This document shows positions 4,534 to 13,198 of a stretch of 64,000 bases of DNA, one piece after another (position 1 is the stretch's first letter; the number at the start of each line of letters is the position of its first letter). Under the pieces are notes generated by a model. That model ran no database searches. It worked only from the letters and a program-made list of their open reading frames with translations, and was not told the DNA's origin. The translations under genes and the position numbers were made by a program. Source of the stretch: an uncultured Alphaproteobacteria bacterium (GTDB taxonomy: Bacteria > Pseudomonadota > Alphaproteobacteria > HIMB59 > GCA-002718135); the NCBI GenBank assembly GCA_902586695.1, contig CACIIL010000001.1:22196-86195 (forward strand), written 5' to 3'.

Positions 4534-5124
4534 TTAAGTCCTAGACAAATAAATCATAAAAGGGAAAAGGGGGAACCCCAAAACATTAAAAAAGTCTCCT
4601 TTAATTGAGCTTATAATTTGTGGACCAAGCTTTTCTGCCTGAAAACATCCAACGGAGAGTAAAATTTCTTTGCCAACGCGTTTTAAATAATCATCAATTT
4701 GTTTATCAGTTAGTTTTTTCATTGTTACTGTTGACACCTGCTGTTTTGACCAAATTTGTTTTTTCATATAACAAACCGATATCCCTGAAATAATTTTGTG
4801 TTTATTGCCAGAAAGTTTTTTAAGTTTTTTTTTGGCCTCATTCATGTTTTTTGCTTTGTTTATAATTTTGTTTTTAAATATAATAATTGTGTCAGAACCA
4901 ACCACCAATTCTTTTGGTTTTTTTTGACTAACACTTAAGGCTTTTTCTTTTGCTAAAATTTTTGCAAAACTTGTTTGTTTGGTCTTATTTATAATTAATT
5001 TTTTTTTAATATTTTCTTCGTTGCAAAGTGGTTTTGTTTTTACAAAATTTAGACCTGCGTTTTTTAATAATCTATATCTAGATAAGCTATTGCTAGCTAA
5101 TATAAATTTCCTGTTTATAAGCAT
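4534..5124 (-). CDS. maf: Maf-like nucleoside triphosphate pyrophosphatase
   Basis: ILASNSLSRYRLL, VVGSDT and QAEKLG motifs of the Maf family. Confidence 0.85.
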   Translation of the reverse strand: MLINRKFILASNSLSRYRLLKNAGLNFVKTKPLCNEENIKKKLIINKTKQTSFAKILAKEKALSVSQKKPKELVVGSDTIIIFKNKIINKAKNMNEAKKKLKKLSGNKHKIISGISVCYMKKQIWSKQQVSTVTMKKLTDKQIDDYLKRVGKEILLSVGCFQAEKLGPQIISSIKGDFFNVLGFPLFPFMIYLSRT

Positions 5125-5469
5125 GTTAACAACTGTTTAACTTATAAACATAATTAATTATTTTTAAATTTATTATTAAGGTCATTAATTGTTATTTGTT
5201 TTAGTTCACAATAAGTTATTTTAAAAAAAAATTATATTCAGGGTGTTATTAAGTGTTTATTAATATTTATTAACAACTTGTTGTGTTTTTAACATTTTTT
5301 TAATTTCCTGTTTTCTAAAGGTTTTTAGGGTTTTTTAAGGTTTTTATAGGTATTAATATTATTTTATACACTTTTTATAAAATGTGATTAATTAGCTAAA
5401 AAAAAGGAATTAATATAATCAACGTTACAACTACTAATACAATCTAATTAATATAAATTAATATATATT
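5125..5469. other. Candidate chromosomal replication origin (oriC) in the maf|rho divergent spacer
   Basis: The whole maf|rho spacer (5125-5533) is the largest non-coding gap in the window (409 bp), is very AT-rich, and lies between divergently transcribed origin-cluster genes. This feature covers the part upstream of the candidate rho promoter. It contains phased T-tract and TTATTAA repeats, a 10-bp inverted repeat and degenerate DnaA-box-like 9-mers. See findings. Confidence 0.45.
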
Positions 5470-5498
5470 TTGACATTAAGGATCATTTTTTGTAATAA
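5470..5498 (+). promoter_or_regulatory. Candidate sigma70-type promoter of rho
   Basis: TTGACA (5470-5475), 17-nt spacer, TAATAA (5493-5498), about 35 nt upstream of the rho ATG. Confidence 0.4.
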
Positions 5499-5533
5499 AA
5501 ATCTTCTTTTCCTTCCAACTACAATAATAAATT

Positions 5534-6796
5534 ATGAATTTACAAGATTTAAAAAACAAACAACCTGAAGAGCTATTAAAAGAAGCTACTAAACTTGAAA
5601 TAGAGAATCCTTCATCTTTAAGAAAACAAGATCTTATGTTTGCTATATTAAAAAAAATAGCAAATGATGGAGAAATTATAACAGGTTTAGGTGTTATAGA
5701 AATTATGCAAGACGGGTTTGGTTTTTTAAGATCTTCTGAATCTAATTATTTACCAGGACCAGACGATATTTATGTATCTCCTTCACAAATTAAAAAATTT
5801 AGTCTTAGAACGGGTGATATTGTTGAGGGAGAGATAAGAGCACCAAAACACGGGGAAAGATATTTTGCTATAACAAAAATTAATAAAATAAATGATCAAA
5901 AAACCGATGTTGTAAAACATAGAGTAAACTTTGAAGACCTAACACCCCTGTATCCAGAATCTCGTTTTAAATTGGAGCAAGAAAAGCCAATGCCTGATTT
6001 AACAGAGAGAATTATAGATATTATTGCACCATTAGGAAAAGGACAAAGACAACTAATAGTAGCACAGCCTTTTACAGGCAAAACTATTATTATGCAAAAA
6101 ATTGCTAATGCAATTACTGCTAATAGCCCCGAAACAAAATTAATTGTTTTGTTAATAGATGAAAGACCAGAAGAGGTTACTGATATGAAAAGATCAGTTA
6201 AGGGGGAGGTCATAAGCTCAACATTTGATGAACCGGCCCAAAGACATGTTCAGGTTGCTGAAATGGTTATAGAAAAAGCTAAAAGATTAGTAGAATATAA
6301 ACACGATGTTGTTATTTTATTAGACTCTATAACGAGGCTTGGAAGAGCCTATAATACTGTTGTTCCATCAAGTGGTAAGGTTTTAACTGGAGGTGTTGAT
6401 GCTAACGCTCTTCAAAGACCTAAAAGGTTTTTCGGAGCAGCAAGGAATGTTGAAAATGGGGGCTCTTTAACTATAATTTCAACAGCCCTTATAGATACTG
6501 GCAGTAGAATGGACGAGGTAATTTTTGAAGAATTTAAAGGTACCGGAAATAGTGAAATAGTTTTAGACAGAAAACTCAGTCAAAAAAGAACATACCCCGC
6601 TTTTGATATTGGAAAGTCAGGAACAAGAAAAGAAGAATTGCTGTTAGACAAAGACGAGCTTGGAAAAATATTTATTTTAAGAAAAATATTAGCACCAATG
6701 GGAACCACAGAATCAATGGAGTTTTTGTTAGATAAAATGAAAGATACAAAAACAAACAATGATTTTTTCCAAAGCATGGGAACAAAAAGCAGCTAA
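5534..6796 (+). CDS. rho: Transcription termination factor Rho
   Basis: Full-length match to the Rho architecture: N-terminal RNA-binding domain (GFGFLR), Walker A (PFTGKT), and RFFGAARN...GSLTII...[18 protein letters not shown]. Confidence 0.97.
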
Positions 6797-6876
6797 TAAA
6801 GCTATTTAATTTAATAAAAACAAATCTTTTATCTGAAATTATAGACTTGAAGGGCTAATAGGTTTATTGGCCAAAA

Positions 6877-8175
6877 ATGTCAAAATACAACGATACAATA
6901 TACGCTCTTTCGAGTCCACCAGGCAAATCAGCAATAGCTATAATAAGGGTCTCAGGGAAGGGTGTTTTAAAAATTATAAAAAAACTTTTTCCGGTTTCAA
7001 AAAAAATAACACCAAATAAAACAAATTTATTTTTACTAAAACATAAAAAAAAACCAATAGATCAGGTTGTTTTAATCTATTTTAAACAACCCAAATCATA
7101 CACTGGGGAGAACATGATAGAAATTAATTGTCATGGAGGCCCAGTAATAATTAATAAAATTTCATTAATATTAGAGGGTCTCGGGGTGAGACTGGCAGAG
7201 CCTGGGGAATTTACTAAAAGAGCATTGTTAAATAATAAAATAGATTTGGTTAAGACAGAAAGTATTGCTGATTTAATAAACTCTGAAACTGAAAAACAAA
7301 TGAGTCTGGCTATAAAAAACCTAACTGGTGGACTCTCATCTTTTACAAAAAAAATTAATGAAGAGCTTAGTAATATTTTGGCAAACACAGAAGCAATAAT
7401 AGACTTTTCTGACGAAGACCTGCCAAAAGACATACTTAAGTCTATAAAAGAACAAAACAAGAACATAATAAAACAAATAAAAAAAGAGCTTGTTAACTCT
7501 AAAATTTCTAGACCAATTAGGGAGGGCTTTCGTGTTTCGGTTATTGGCAAACCAAACACCGGAAAATCTTCCTTTGTTAATTATGTTTCAAAAAAAAATG
7601 TATCTATCGTTACAAGTATTCCTGGAACAACAACTGATGCAATTACTTCATCGTTAGAAATTGATGGATATAAATTTACTTTTATTGATACTGCTGGAAT
7701 TAGAAGACATAGAAACAAAATTGAAGAACTTGGTATTAAAAAAACTAACGAAATTATTACAAGCTCTGATTTAAATTTAGTTTTTTTAGAAAAAAATGAA
7801 ACAAACAAATACAAGAATATTAAAAACAAGCTATTTGTTAGGTCTAAGGCAGACAAAAAACAAAAGAAAACGAAAGAAAAAAATATTTATAATATATCTT
7901 CATTTTCAGGCGTTGGGGTTAAGTTATTATTAAAAAAAATCAAAGATATTTTGTTAAAAAACAATAAAAATGAACCCATCCTTTCACGTGAAAGGCATAT
8001 CTTTATAATGAAAGATGTATTAAAAACCCTTGATTCAATTGATTTTTCAGAAAATTTGGATATTTTAGCTTATAAATTTAGAGTTGCCCTTAATCAATCA
8101 CTAGAAATTAATCAAAAATTTGATATTGAAGATATATTAGGTATAATATTTAATGATTTTTGTATAGGAAAATGA
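6877..8175 (+). CDS. mnmE: tRNA modification GTPase MnmE
   Basis: DTIYALSS N-terminus, G-domain GKPNTGKSS / DTAGIR, and C-terminal FCIGK. Confidence 0.95.
7980..7995. promoter_or_regulatory. parS-like centromere site (perfect 16-bp palindrome CCTTTCACGTGAAAGG)
   Basis: The 12-bp core TTTCACGTGAAA is identical to the core of the canonical parS TGTTTCACGTGAAACA. It lies inside the 3' part of mnmE, upstream of parAB. Confidence 0.6.
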
Positions 8176-8189
8176 TTTCACGTGAAAAT
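8174..8189. promoter_or_regulatory. parS-like centromere site (GATTTCACGTGAAAAT)
   Basis: Same 12-bp core TTTCACGTGAAA at the mnmE stop / mnmG start junction, about 190 bp from the first site. Confidence 0.55.
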
Positions 8190-10055
8190 ATGAAAAAAAA
8201 ATATGCAGTTGTGGTAATTGGGGGCGGACATGCTGGTGTTGAGGCTGCTACAGCAGCAGCTAGAATGGGAGTAAGTGTAGCATTAGTAACCCATAAAATT
8301 GATAAAATAGGCGAGATGTCTTGTAACCCAGCAATTGGGGGCCTTGGAAAAGGTCACCTGGTAAGGGAGGTTGACTCACTTGATGGAGTAATGGGAAGGG
8401 CCATAGATAAGGGTGGAATTCAGTTCAGAATGCTTAATGAAAGCAGAGGCGCAGCTGTTAGGGGCCCCAGAGCTCAAGCTGATAGAAAGCTTTATAAGAA
8501 CGCTATTTTTGAAATTGTTAAAAACCAAAAAGGATTGGATTTAATTGAGGGATCGGTTGAGGATCTGGGCATTTTAAACAATCAAATTAATGCCGTAATT
8601 TTAGAGGACGGGAGAAAAATTAACTGTTTGTCAGTGGTTTTAACATCCGGTACTTTTTTAAGGGGGGTTATAAGAATGGGTACTAAAAGCATAGAGGCTG
8701 GTAGGGTCGGAGACAAACCTTCTATTTCTCTTGCAAAAAAAATTGAAAAACTAAAGTTTTCAATAGGTAGATTAAAAACAGGGACCCCACCACGATTACT
8801 TAAAAAATCTATAAATTTCAATAACTTAACAGAACAACTACCTGACAAAGTGCCCACACCCTTCTCTTTTATCAACAACTCTATCCACACCCAGCAAATT
8901 TCATGTTTCATTACCCACACTAATAGCAACACCCACAAAATTATTTCTGACAACATTGGTTTGTCACCAATGTATTCTGGTGTAATTAAATCTATGGGCG
9001 CCAGATATTGTCCATCAATTGAGGACAAAATTACAAAATTTCCCAATAAAAAAAACCACCAAATTTTTCTAGAACCAGAGGGCTTGGATAGCGACTTAAT
9101 TTATCCGAATGGAATATCCTCTTCTTTGCCTGAAAATATTCAAGAGAAATTTGTTAGGTCAATCAAAGGCTTGGAAAAAGCGATCATTACTCAACCAGCA
9201 TATGCAATAGAATACGACTATATTGATCCAAGAGAGTTAACCCACACACTTGAAACGAAAAAAATAAAAAATCTTTTTTTGGCTGGCCAAATAAATGGGA
9301 CAACAGGTTATGAAGAGGCCGCCGCACAGGGTATTATAGCTGGTATTAATGCTGGTTTAAAAAAAACTACAAAAAAAGAGTTTGTTGTTGATAGATCCCA
9401 AGGTTATATTGGTGTTTTAATCGATGATTTAGTTACTAAAGGAACAAAAGAACCATATAGAATGTTCACATCTAGATCAGAATACAGGCTTTTATTAAGA
9501 TCAGACAACGCCGACCAAAGAATTACACCACTAGGAATTGAAATTGGTTGTGTTTCTTTGCTCAGACAAAATATTTTTAATAAAAAAATTAATATGATAA
9601 ACAGGGCGTTTAAACTGGTTAAGAGCCTAAAAGCTTCTCCAAATCAATTACAAAAAAAAGACATAAAAATTAAGTTAGATGGAAAAAAAAGATCTGCTTT
9701 TGATCTTCTTTCATATAAAAACATTAATTTCAAAAAATTAGAAAAAATATGGCCAGAACTTACAGCTTTGAAAACAGATGCTAAAGAGCAGATTGAGATC
9801 GAATCTGTTTATTCCTCTTACCTTGATAGACAAAGGGCCGATATAGAGGATTTTAAAAAAGAAGAAGGAATGAGGATACCTAAAATCATAGACTTCAAAG
9901 ATGTTGGAAGTTTGTCGAATGAAATAGTAGAAAAGCTGACTAAAATTAAACCACCAACCCTTGGAGCAGCTTCTAGAATTTCTGGAGTTACGCCCGCTGC
10001 AATAATTGCAATTATGAGGTTTATCAAAAAACAAAAAAATAATAAAGCGGCATAA
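8190..10055 (+). CDS. mnmG: tRNA uridine 5-carboxymethylaminomethyl modification enzyme MnmG (GidA)
   Basis: [17 protein letters not shown] motif and end-to-end GidA-like sequence. The tracked ORF begins at 8160. ATG 8190 ([13 protein letters not shown]) is the more plausible start. Confidence 0.95.
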
Positions 10056-10056
10056 G

Positions 10057-10674
10057 TTGAACAAAGAAGAAATAATTAACTATTTTAATTTAACCAAAAA
10101 TCAAATTGAAAGCATTGAGATGTTTTTATCTAATATCGTTGAACACAACAAACACACCAACCTAATAGGCAGGTCAACAATTAAGAATCTTTGGAATAGG
10201 CATGTTCTTGATTGCCTGCAGTTATCAAAATATATTAACTCTAAAAAAACCAAAATACTCGATCTTGGGACTGGCCCAGGTCTTCCAGGTGTTTTGTTAT
10301 CAATTGTTGGTTACAAAAACATATTAATGATAGACTCTTCTAGAAAAAAAACCGAATTTGTAAAACTAAACATCAATCAATTGTTTTTATCTGCAAAAAT
10401 AATTAATAAAAGAATCGAAACTGTTGAGGCTAAAAACCATGACATTATTGTTTCAAGAGCGCTCGCCCCACTTAACAAATTATTAACTTATGCACTTATT
10501 CATTCCAATAAAAAAACAACATCGCTTTTTTTAAAAGGAAGAAGTGTTAGTAATGAATTACAGATAGCAAAAAAAAATTTTTTTTTTGATTATGAGGTTT
10601 TTGAAAGTATAAGTGTGGGGGATGGTTGTATTTTGAAAATAAGAAACATTAAAGTTAAAAAAAATAATGACTAA
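10057..10674 (+). CDS. rsmG: 16S rRNA (guanine527-N7)-methyltransferase RsmG (GidB)
   Basis: LDLGTGPGLPG SAM motif, RHVLDC, gidA-gidB-parA-parB synteny. TTG start. Confidence 0.9.
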   Translation: MNKEEIINYFNLTKNQIESIEMFLSNIVEHNKHTNLIGRSTIKNLWNRHVLDCLQLSKYINSKKTKILDLGTGPGLPGVLLSIVGYKNILMIDSSRKKTEFVKLNINQLFLSAKIINKRIETVEAKNHDIIVSRALAPLNKLLTYALIHSNKKTTSLFLKGRSVSNELQIAKKNFFFDYEVFESISVGDGCILKIRNIKVKKNND

Positions 10675-11437
10675 AATAATATCTATTGCAAATCAAAAAG
10701 GAGGTGTTGGAAAAACAACAACATCAATAAACTTAGCAACCTCTTTATCGGCAATTAATAACAAGGTTCTTCTTGTTGATGCTGATCCACAAGGCAACGC
10801 AAGTACTGGAGTCGGCATTCCTTATGAAAATAGAAGCCCAAGCCTATATGATCTAATTGTAAATCGTGAATTTGATGCAAAATCAATTATAAAAACCATT
10901 GTTCCTGATTTAGATATTATTACAGCAAACACAAATCTAGCAGCATCAGAAATTGAATTAGCTAATATTGAAAATAGAGAGTTTGTAATTCTTGAAATTT
11001 TATCTAAAATCAAAAACTATGATTACATTATAATTGATTGTCCGCCAGCACTTGGGCTATTAACAATAAATTCTTTAGTGGCATCAAATTCAGTAATTGT
11101 CCCTCTTCAATCAGAGTTTTTTGCCCTAGAGGGCGTTTCTTCTTTGGTTAGCTCTATTCAGTTAATAAAAGAAAACTTTAACAACAGTCTTAGGGTTGAG
11201 GGAATAGTATTAACAATGGTTGATAAAAGAAACTCATTAAGCGCTTTAGTTGAAAAAGATGTTAGGGATCATTTTGGTGAAATTGTCTACAAAACAACAA
11301 TTCCAAGAAATGTTAAAATATCCGAGGCTCCTAGCCACGGTAAGCCCGCAATATTATATGATGTTAATTGTTCTGGATCTATGGCATATATAGGGCTTGC
11401 CAAGGAGATTATAAACAGACAGGGCTTAATAAAATGA
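10667..11437 (+). CDS. parA: Chromosome partitioning ATPase ParA
   Basis: Deviant Walker A NQKGGVGKTTT, DCPP and ParA-type C-terminus. Confidence 0.95.
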   Translation: MTKIISIANQKGGVGKTTTSINLATSLSAINNKVLLVDADPQGNASTGVGIPYENRSPSLYDLIVNREFDAKSIIKTIVPDLDIITANTNLAASEIELANIENREFVILEILSKIKNYDYIIIDCPPALGLLTINSLVASNSVIVPLQSEFFALEGVSSLVSSIQLIKENFNNSLRVEGIVLTMVDKRNSLSALVEKDVRDHFGEIVYKTTIPRNVKISEAPSHGKPAILYDVNCSGSMAYIGLAKEIINRQGLIK

Positions 11438-12267
11438 ACAAAGAAAACAAAAAACTAGGCATGGGTCTCGGCGCATTATTAAGTCCAAACAAAGACAGCA
11501 GAAACAACATAAACAAGATAGAAATTTCAAAAATTTCACCAAACAAGAAACAACCAAGAAAAAAATTTGATGATAAAGAAATAAAAGAGCTTTCAGGCTC
11601 AATTAAAAACCAAGGTCTAATTCAGCCCTTGGTGGTTAGAAAAATATTAAATGATTCATATGAAATTGTTGCAGGGGAGAGAAGGTGGAGAGCCTGTCAG
11701 ATTGCAGGACTTCATGAAGTAGAATGTGTAATTATGGACATTTCTGAAGAAAAAGTTTTTGAGTTAGCATTAATAGAAAATATTCAAAGAGAAAACCTAA
11801 ATGTTGTTGAAGAGGCTAGTGCTTATAAAAACTTAATACAGATTTATAAATTAAAAAACGAAGAGCTTGCCAAAAAACTTGGTAAAAGCGCTAGCCACAT
11901 TTCAAATCTAATTAGAATTTTGGACTTAGATGAAGAAATTCACCAAATGATCATAGATGGTAAGATTAGCATGGGACATGCCCGCGCGCTAATTGGTGTA
12001 CCTAATGCGGTTGAAAAGGCCAAAGAAATTATAGAAAAAAAACTTAGTGTTAGGGATGTTGAAAAATCAACGGCTGGTTTCAAACAAAAAAGAAAAAAAC
12101 ACTCAGGAAAAGATCCCAACATAGCGGATTTAGAAAAAGAACTTTCTGATAAAATTGGTTTAAAGACTGAGATAGAATTTAATGAAAACGGCTCCAGCGG
12201 ATCATTAAAATTATATTATTCAGACTTAAATCAACTTGATGAAATAATGAAAAGACTCAAGAAGTAA
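11434..12267 (+). CDS. parB: Chromosome partitioning protein ParB
   Basis: GLGALL, QPRK.F, GLIQPLVVR and GERRWRA motifs. Start is set at ATG 11434 (ATGA overlap with the parA stop) rather than the longer tracked ORF at 11368. Confidence 0.95.
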   Translation: MNKENKKLGMGLGALLSPNKDSRNNINKIEISKISPNKKQPRKKFDDKEIKELSGSIKNQGLIQPLVVRKILNDSYEIVAGERRWRACQIAGLHEVECVIMDISEEKVFELALIENIQRENLNVVEEASAYKNLIQIYKLKNEELAKKLGKSASHISNLIRILDLDEEIHQMIIDGKISMGHARALIGVPNAVEKAKEIIEKKLSVRDVEKSTAGFKQKRKKHSGKDPNIADLEKELSDKIGLKTEIEFNENGSSGSLKLYYSDLNQLDEIMKRLKK

Positions 12268-13198
12268 TTATTTTTTTTATATTTAATAAAAACCTTAATC
12301 CAATTACACTAAACAAATCAGAGTTTTTTCTAGTTAATACCTCTGCTCTTAAGATACTCTTATAAAGCATATTTATTTTATATTTGTCTAAAGAGTTAAA
12401 AATTTTTATAAAAACATCTTTTTCATTGAATAAATATTTTGGAAACTTTTCAAGAGCCTCTGGGGTATTGGAAGAGGTGCTTATAATGTTTAGGTGATTT
12501 TTTATGTTATTTATAAGCATATATAAGTCACTTTGAGAGAAAATATTTTTGTTAAAAACTTTTATTAAAATATTATTTTTTTTAAAAATTTGAAAAAAAA
12601 TTTTACTAATATCAATTTTACTTTCGATTGTTATGGCGTTTTCAACATCAGCAATGTTTTTAATGTTTTTGCTATAAAGAGAGAGCATCTCAAGTTTTTT
12701 AACAAATAAAACATATTCATTATCTAAATTTTCTAAGATGTACCAAAAAACATCGCTTGAAAAACCTAAACCATTTGTTTCAATATAGTTTCTAAGAACG
12801 ACCTCTTTACTTTTTCTATTTAGGGGATAGCACTCAAGAACTAAGTTTTTTTCTGATCTTGAAAATTGTGCCTTTAATTTATTTATATTTTTATTGTTCA
12901 GTGAAGAAATTAATACAGTTTCAGGAAGCTCATCTGTGTTTTTTAATTCATTTTTTTTTTCAGAATAATCACCCAATACATATAAAATTTTTTTATCTGA
13001 AAAAAGATCCCCAATCAAACCTTCTTTTTTAAATCCAGATCTTTCTATAAAGTAATTTTTTTTAACAAAATAGTTAATTACGTATTCTGATACAAAGTTG
13101 ATAAAACCTTCATCTAAACCACAAATAAGTATTTTATTATAATTAATGTCTTCATTTTTTAATAAAAAAATCTCTGGTTTAATTTTCATTAAATACAA
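12257..13198 (-). CDS. holA: DNA polymerase III delta subunit (probable)
   Basis: Size and the conserved leuS-lptE-holA arrangement. Sequence is diverged, so the call rests mostly on synteny. Confidence 0.65.
   Translation of the reverse strand: MYLMKIKPEIFLLKNEDINYNKILICGLDEGFINFVSEYVINYFVKKNYFIERSGFKKEGLIGDLFSDKKILYVLGDYSEKKNELKNTDELPETVLISSLNNKNINKLKAQFSRSEKNLVLECYPLNRKSKEVVLRNYIETNGLGFSSDVFWYILENLDNEYVLFVKKLEMLSLYSKNIKNIADVENAITIESKIDISKIFFQIFKKNNILIKVFNKNIFSQSDLYMLINNIKNHLNIISTSSNTPEALEKFPKYLFNEKDVFIKIFNSLDKYKINMLYKSILRAEVLTRKNSDLFSVIGLRFLLNIKKIITS

Follow-up and report, generated by a model that had tools for sequence, protein, structure and literature searches.

In the ParABS systems described so far, ParB recognises parS, for which the consensus TGTTTCAC-GTGAAACA has been reported, and the ParB paralogue Noc, whose specificity has switched, recognises the Noc-binding sequence NBS, TATTTCCC-GGGAAATA (PMC7383237). 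The ParB protein of Pseudomonas aeruginosa also binds half-parS heptamers (PMC5961200). Here we analysed a stretch of 64,000 nucleotides from an uncultured alphaproteobacterium (contig CACIIL010000001.1; hereafter the window), whose closest relatives by MnmG sequence belong to SAR11 (Pelagibacterales), with a top identity of 83%. The window contains two copies of a 12-bp palindrome, TTTCACGTGAAA, in mnmE and at the junction of mnmE and mnmG, upstream of parA and parB. From comparative sequence analysis, we consider these two palindromes to be probable ParB-binding parS sites that function in this SAR11 bacterium, with a likelihood of roughly 80%. No bacterial lineage in the ocean is more abundant than SAR11. 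To our knowledge, the machinery with which it segregates its chromosome has not been investigated so far, and we found no paper combining parS sites, ParB and SAR11 in the literature library searched.

The two sites are located as follows.

7980-7995: candidate parS site 1, CCTTTCACGTGAAAGG, with the invariant core at 7982-7993, inside the mnmE codons Leu369-Ser370-Arg371-Glu372-Arg373
8174-8189: candidate parS site 2, GATTTCACGTGAAAAT, with the invariant core at 8176-8187, in the 14 nt that separate the mnmE stop from the mnmG start

Site 1 is a perfect palindrome over its full 16 bp, and the palindromy of site 2 is limited to the central 12 bp. A first-pass annotation of the window had read the two sites in this way, as sharing a 12-bp core identical to the centre of canonical parS, and the sequence confirms the match at 12/12 positions in both. 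With respect to the full 16-mer TGTTTCACGTGAAACA, the mismatches are exactly the four outer positions of each site, where CC..GG (site 1) and GA..AT (site 2) replace the TG...CA of parS. The common 12-mer TTTCACGTGAAA occurs in two exact copies in the window, for which 0.02 copies are expected by chance, and two copies appeared in 0/100 dinucleotide-preserving shuffles. Copies with one mismatch are absent from the window, and the three copies with two mismatches correspond to the chance level. The hexamer CACGTG is present at the two sites only, and TGTTTCACGTGAAACA has no match with three or fewer mismatches anywhere in the window. The annotation had also claimed that no further CACGTG-centred copy exists and that a chance recurrence is very unlikely, and both claims agree with these counts. 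Its gene context and distances hold as well, with the genes called by Pfam. Site 1 reads CTT-TCA-CGT-GAA-AGG in the mnmE frame, as part of the conserved SRERH motif, and the core of site 2 fills 12 of the 14 nucleotides between the mnmE TGA (8173-8175) and the mnmG ATG (8190). The centres of the two 12-bp cores are 194 bp apart, and the sites lie 2.5-2.7 kb from parA and 2.4 kb from the maf-rho intergenic region, the annotation's candidate origin.

We compared the window with 22 Pelagibacterales genome loci (MnmG identity 68-83%) and two metagenome loci, giving 25 sequences in total. The loci were examined over ±6 kb, and the codon and invariant-run analyses cover 23 genomes (the 22 and the window). 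TTTCACGTGAAA is invariant at both homologous places in 25/25 sequences, and the two flanking bases on each side vary. In 23/23 genomes, the core of site 2 starts right after the mnmE stop codon. The first-pass annotation had suggested looking for conservation at synonymous sites of mnmE in relatives, which the codon alignment reveals at site 1, where Ser TCA, Arg CGT and GAA are fixed in all 23 genomes. The mnmE alignment has 97 amino-acid-invariant columns with degenerate codons, 13 of which are codon-invariant. Only two of its 16 six-fold columns are codon-invariant, and both are in site 1 (Ser TCA and Arg CGT); the mnmG background is 2/62. CGT makes up 4.6% of the Arg codons in this genome, and the other invariant Arg columns of mnmE use AGA or AGG. 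The codon ahead of the site 1 Ser is CTT, TTT or GTT, retaining TT while the residue changes among Leu, Phe and Val. In an unbiased scan of the 3.1-kb alignment for the longest invariant runs, the two sites ranked second (13 nt) and third (12 nt). Given the synonymous-site invariance on a rare codon and the ranking of the invariant runs, both sites are therefore under direct nucleotide-level selection across the order, beyond coding constraint.

The same data bear on the simplest alternative, namely that the palindromes are due to chance or are a by-product of coding constraint on the Ser-Arg-Glu-Arg-His of MnmE. This amino-acid motif is indeed invariant. However, no shuffle produced two copies, the synonymous positions are fixed, the Arg codon being a rare one, and site 2 lies outside the mnmE coding sequence. 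The shuffles, the synonymous-site freeze, the rarity of CGT and the invariant-run scan together refute this origin, to which we assign a negligible likelihood.

The neighbourhood of the sites includes a parAB pair (gene calls by Pfam).

Minus strand, the last gene ending at 5124: a Tim44-like gene, dnaQ, coaE, aroE and maf
5534-6796, plus strand: rho
6877-8175, plus strand: mnmE, a tRNA modification GTPase gene hosting site 1 (TrmE_N, MMR_HSR1, MnmE_helical)
8190-10055, plus strand: mnmG (gidA) (GIDA, E = 1.4e-168)
10057-10674, plus strand: rsmG
10667-11437, plus strand: parA, encoding the partition ATPase (AAA_31, CbiA, ParA)
11434-12267, plus strand: parB, the presumed reader of both sites (ParB_N, HTH_ParB, ParB_C)
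Beyond parB, minus strand: two open reading frames without a Pfam assignment, and leuS

An Rfam scan of the window returned one tRNA and nothing else. The ParB protein has 277 residues, with the N-terminal motif LGMGLGALL, the cytidine triphosphate (CTP)-binding motif GERRWRA from residue 81, a helix-turn-helix (HTH) domain and a C-terminal dimerisation domain. It is 100% identical to a 277-residue database protein, and its matches in the PDB are the ParB/Spo0J proteins of Myxococcus, Bacillus, Thermus, Caulobacter and Helicobacter (E = 1e-57 to 1e-43).

In the co-crystal structure of Caulobacter ParB, R173 hydrogen-bonds guanine 1 of parS, which is base 2 of the 16-mer; R173 was reported to be 'invariable' in parS-specific variants and ParB orthologues, and Q162 is a DNA-contact residue conserved in ParB and Noc (PMC7383237). 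The window ParB aligns without gaps to the DNA-binding domain of Caulobacter ParB (6s6h), with GKSASHISNLIRILDL against GKSRSHVANTMRLLAL, which places both residues in the window.

11857-11859, plus strand: codon of ParB Asn142, at the position of Caulobacter Q162
11890-11892, plus strand: ParB Ala153 (GCT), at the position of Caulobacter R173

We counted residues, in Caulobacter numbering, among the 120 nearest database clusters, which are all SAR11-like with at least 79% identity, and among diverse ParBs, namely the 134 scorable sequences of the 150 best representatives of 50%-identity clusters. Position 173 is Ser in 100, Ala in 14, Thr in four and Pro in two of the SAR11 clusters and Arg in 0/120, as against Arg in 132/134 diverse ParBs. 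The Gln at position 162, found in 113/134 diverse ParBs, is replaced in 120/120 SAR11 clusters by Asn, Ile, Ser, Val or Thr. The residues contacting the core, G170, K171, S172, N178, G201 and R204, are unchanged in all 120 SAR11 clusters; among the 134 diverse ParBs, they are found in 134 (G170), 129 (K171), 122 (S172), 134 (N178), 132 (G201) and 113 (R204) sequences.

The change at ParB residue 173 tracks the loss of the outer bases. Outgroup Alphaproteobacteria, which have R173, carry two or three full copies of TGTTTCACGTGAAACA around mnmG-parAB at differing positions, and in the outgroup locus L023, one full 16-mer precedes mnmG by about 120 bp. L019 represents the deepest branch of the Pelagibacterales in our sample; it keeps R173, and its sites, TGTTTCACGTGAAAGA and GATTTCACGTGAAACA, have one canonical half each. 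The outer parS bases are degenerate in L036, which has Lys173, and in all lineages with S/A/P173. Three further R173 relatives from metagenomes, found with the L019 ParB as query (L034, L035 and L054), are on contigs ending before mnmE/mnmG, and CACGTG is absent from the short contigs of the R173-retaining candidates P0121 and P0122. Lys173 is also found in a Pelagibacterales-like subgroup (GKSKSHISN) comprising the metagenome loci L036-L038, L040 and L041, of which L036 alone reaches mnmE/mnmG; the subgroup is intermediate between the R173 lineages (L019, L034, L035 and L054) and the S/A/T/P lineages. An unrelated ParB representative, P0227, likewise has Lys173.

The first-pass annotation had attributed the unusual outer bases to a possible lineage-specific ParB specificity. 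The part concerning the protein stands, as R173 is replaced in all SAR11 ParBs counted and is kept where the outer bases are canonical. The part concerning the DNA does not, as CC..GG and GA..AT represent no new fixed consensus but vary between genomes, dictated by codons and the stop codon. The outer bases of site 1 are set by the overlapping first base of the Leu/Phe/Val codon and by the G and R of the Arg AGR codon, and those of site 2 by the last two bases of TAA/TAG/TGA and the third mnmG codon. Taken together, core invariance, synonymous conservation, the canonical parS of the outgroups and the adjacent ParA/ParB pair support the assignment of the palindromes as putative parS sites.

The palindromes might instead constitute the operator of another protein, such as a regulator of mnmG or of the gid-par operon, whose target is an inverted repeat centred on CACGTG. 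Site 2 is located between a promoter-like match (8120-8147) and mnmG, directly ahead of the latter, and the SAR11 ParB lacks both R173 and a permissive Lys, a combination that abolishes binding by Caulobacter ParB. Nevertheless, we regard such an operator as very unlikely. Its core would coincide with parS at 12/12 positions, the outgroups carry canonical parS in the same neighbourhood, the core-contacting ParB residues are invariant in SAR11, and no candidate regulator emerged. Promoter-like matches over 5000-12500 are not enriched above shuffles either (29 vs 33.5 expected). The match in question, TTGATA-16 nt-TATAAT (11/12), is in the 3'-terminal part of mnmE, some 30 bp ahead of site 2, and may be a chance product of AT-rich DNA. 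A terminator-like call at site 1 was rejected, since it is the palindrome itself, and promoter and terminator counts over 5000-12500 were at or below the shuffle expectation.

Under the parS assignment, a ParB dimer, encoded 3.2 kb downstream, would recognise each 12-bp core through its HTH domain. By analogy with characterised ParBs, the CTP-bound clamp would then close and slide onto the flanking DNA over the mnmE-parB operon, and the partition complex so formed would be moved by ParA, possibly also loading SMC. In the Pelagibacterales, the recognition sequence might have shrunk from 16 bp, of which 14 bp are contacted, to the central TTTCACGTGAAA. Arg173, the reader of the outer G:C, and Gln162 would have been given up, and we propose that the outer bases then drifted because ParB had lost these two residues. 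For a genome size of about 1.3 Mb at 29% GC, we extrapolate about 0.4 chance copies of the 12-mer, which would be specific enough, and specificity therefore need not suffer. We lean slightly towards the view that the specificity of SAR11 ParB has contracted to 12 bp and become insensitive to the outer bases. Genome streamlining might reach as far as centromere recognition, with a natural ParB that dispenses with Arg173 and Gln162 on a minimal 12-bp parS, without the permissive lysines on which laboratory variants depended and through a compensating protein contact; for this proposal, we see the chances as evenly balanced. The same even odds apply to its corollary that the outer bases became free to act as codons, stop codon and start codon. 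A parS site beside parAB is to be expected, whereas its contraction to 12 bp coupled to the loss of R173 and Q162 across a whole order does not seem to have been described in the literature that we could search.

Several points weigh against functional parS sites with such a contracted specificity. Both sites are four mismatches away from the 16-mer consensus, and a standard search with this consensus or a position weight matrix (PWM) would score them poorly. Of 16 test sites, none was bound by a Caulobacter ParB that carried the R173Q substitution and had no permissive Lys at 179 or 184 (PMC7383237), and the SAR11 ParB, with Leu179 and Asp/Glu184, also lacks these lysines. By this analogy, the affinity of SAR11 ParB must be recovered by a compensating contact, or its binding would be weak. 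The covariation between residue 173 and the sites amounts to about one evolutionary transition, from R in L019 through K in L036 to S/A/T/P, and in L019 the decay of the outer bases is already under way with R173 still present. Finally, site 2 covers the probable GTG start of mnmG in most relatives, and its conservation could be partly translational.

The central GTG of site 2 (8182-8184 in the window) is in frame with mnmG in 22/23 Pelagibacterales genomes and appears as the sole plausible mnmG start in about 12 of them, where the stop codon is followed by TTTCAC and GTG AAA (L001-L007, L017-L019, L026 and L030). In these GTG-start genomes, the candidate parS site thus overlaps with both the stop codon of mnmE and the start codon of mnmG. 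In the window, a 2-nt shift puts this GTG out of frame and ATG 8190 serves as the mnmG start, with the 12-mer left intact. One could thus suppose a role at the RNA level, in which base pairing between the self-complementary copies of the mnmE-mnmG transcript would hide the region of the mnmG start, or in which site 2 is kept for its GTG start and early codons. The recurrent start codon is in line with such a role, and site 1 is paired with site 2 in both the minimum-free-energy and the centroid fold of 7960-8210. However, the stability of this fold is no better than that of shuffles (z = -0.54), and no covariation between the flanks of the two copies extends the duplex. A duplex would require neither palindromy nor identity to the parS core, the 12-mer persists in the window where the mnmG start has moved to an ATG in another frame, and site 1 is at no start codon. 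An RNA-level role would also leave the covariation with ParB R173 unexplained, and we find it highly improbable.

A further alternative accepts the palindromes as parS, though secondary or weak, the main SAR11 centromere being formed by better sites elsewhere, possibly nearer the true origin. The 64 kb of the window limit our view of this genome, the origin has a candidate position only, and in many bacteria, multiple parS sites are scattered across tens of kilobases. We nevertheless judge this alternative unlikely. The window holds no other copy within one mismatch of the 12-mer or three of the 16-mer, and no additional TTTCACGTGAAA was found within ±6 kb in the 22 relatives or in about 5 kb downstream of parB in L038 and L039, the metagenome loci that reach so far. 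Moreover, canonical outer bases would bring no gain to a ParB without R173, and the absolute conservation of both sites argues for their importance.

The candidate origin lies between maf and rho.

5125-5533: maf-rho intergenic region, 409 bp, 17% GC, the candidate origin of the first-pass annotation, supported by synteny

The length (403-410 bp) and AT-richness of this region, which is unusually long for SAR11, are kept in eight relatives. Its conserved blocks include GTTATAAACATAATTA near maf and, at the right end, the rho promoter TTGACA(5470-5475)-17 nt-TAATAA(5493-5498). The gene order around the region fits that near the Caulobacter origin (Cori). A scan for DnaA boxes (TTATCCACA, one or no mismatch) gave chance-level counts, with no match and no cluster in the maf-rho region. 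Three CtrA-like TTAA-N7-TTAA motifs in the region were discounted, as they are not conserved in relatives. The GC skew is +0.121 for plus-strand genes and -0.125 for minus-strand genes and is wholly explained by gene strand. To the left and right of the rho-parB block alike, minus-strand genes are twice as numerous as plus-strand ones. The skew therefore cannot locate an origin in the window. With a purely transcriptional skew and no DnaA-box cluster, the assignment of the region as origin is not supported in the form the annotation had given it. From synteny, the proximity of the sites to the origin is plausible.

Side observations were made within mnmG. The longest invariant run of the 3.1-kb alignment among the 23 Pelagibacterales (16 nt) is TAAAGTTTTCAATAGG at 8752-8767. 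Its codons, Leu-Lys-Phe-Ser-Ile-Gly, include a rare Lys AAG (11% usage) and one of the two codon-invariant six-fold columns of mnmG. Two same-strand DnaA-box-like 9-mers, TTATCAACA (8869-8877) and CTATCCACA (8881-8889), are 3 nt apart, and a third DnaA-box-like position is listed at 8911-8919. The second box is a perfect TTATCCACA in L001, L004-L007 and L039. The boxes are kept via the rare Ile codon ATC (5.6% usage), with ATC/GTC in 23/23 genomes at the first box and ATC in 20/23 at the second, and the pair is absent from the outgroups L020 and L046. Judged from these sequences, the 9-mers might be embedded DnaA boxes about 700 bp from the candidate parS pair. DnaA reportedly binds near the centromere of Caulobacter.

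The two sites offer a concrete two-site candidate centromere for SAR11, which could be used as a target for chromatin immunoprecipitation or fluorescent ParB labelling. Searches with a consensus or PWM tuned to the 16-mer are expected to miss or under-score them, and surveys may wrongly list SAR11 as lacking parS. The paired change in ParB and its sites might be a natural counterpart of the engineered paths from ParB to Noc, as a contraction rather than a switch of specificity, and poor binding would be expected, from laboratory data, of the background in which it occurs (Leu179, Asp/Glu184).

Compared with the canonical ParABS systems of B. subtilis, Caulobacter crescentus, Myxococcus and Thermus, the SAR11 locus shares the central 12 bp of parS, its palindromic nature, the small number of sites and their position beside gid-parAB. 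The ParB domain set, with a ParB_N domain containing GERRxRA, the HTH and the C-terminal dimerisation domain, is also the same. Another common feature is a site within a coding sequence, here mnmE in SAR11, as in the classic B. subtilis parS site inside spo0J. In contrast to the canonical systems, the SAR11 sites lack the G1/C-1 pair, conservation does not extend to the two outermost positions of either side, and the SAR11 ParB is without R173 and Q162, both of them DNA contacts in the Caulobacter co-crystal. In Caulobacter crescentus, likewise an alphaproteobacterium, a cluster of parS sites reportedly lies close to parAB, with Cori some 8 kb away. Its synteny is the same, with maf/aroE/coaE/dnaQ, rho-mnmE-mnmG-rsmG-parA-parB and holA-lptE-leuS, and its sites lie in the same operon neighbourhood. 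They are more numerous than those seen here, group around parB instead of the mnmE/mnmG junction, and have outer bases that are canonical or nearly so.

The half-parS binding of P. aeruginosa resembles the proposed SAR11 case in that part of the 16-bp palindrome suffices for ParB. There, however, a canonical ParB acts on many dispersed half-sites in addition to full parS, whereas SAR11 keeps both halves of the core, has two sites in view, and has changed the protein itself. In the Noc-NBS pair, as in SAR11, a change at residue 173 accompanies a change at DNA position 1, and site 2 of the window has A at this position. The centre of the SAR11 sites is CACGTG in place of the CCCGGG of NBS, and the SAR11 gene lies in a parAB operon. 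Its protein has S/A/T/P173 instead of Gln, Gly201 instead of Arg, and L179 and D/E184 instead of Lys. The window thus has neither the CCCGGG centre nor the Q173/K179/K184/R201 reader by which NBS is recognised. Unlike the switch of Noc to a new contact, the change in SAR11 looks like the loss of a contact.

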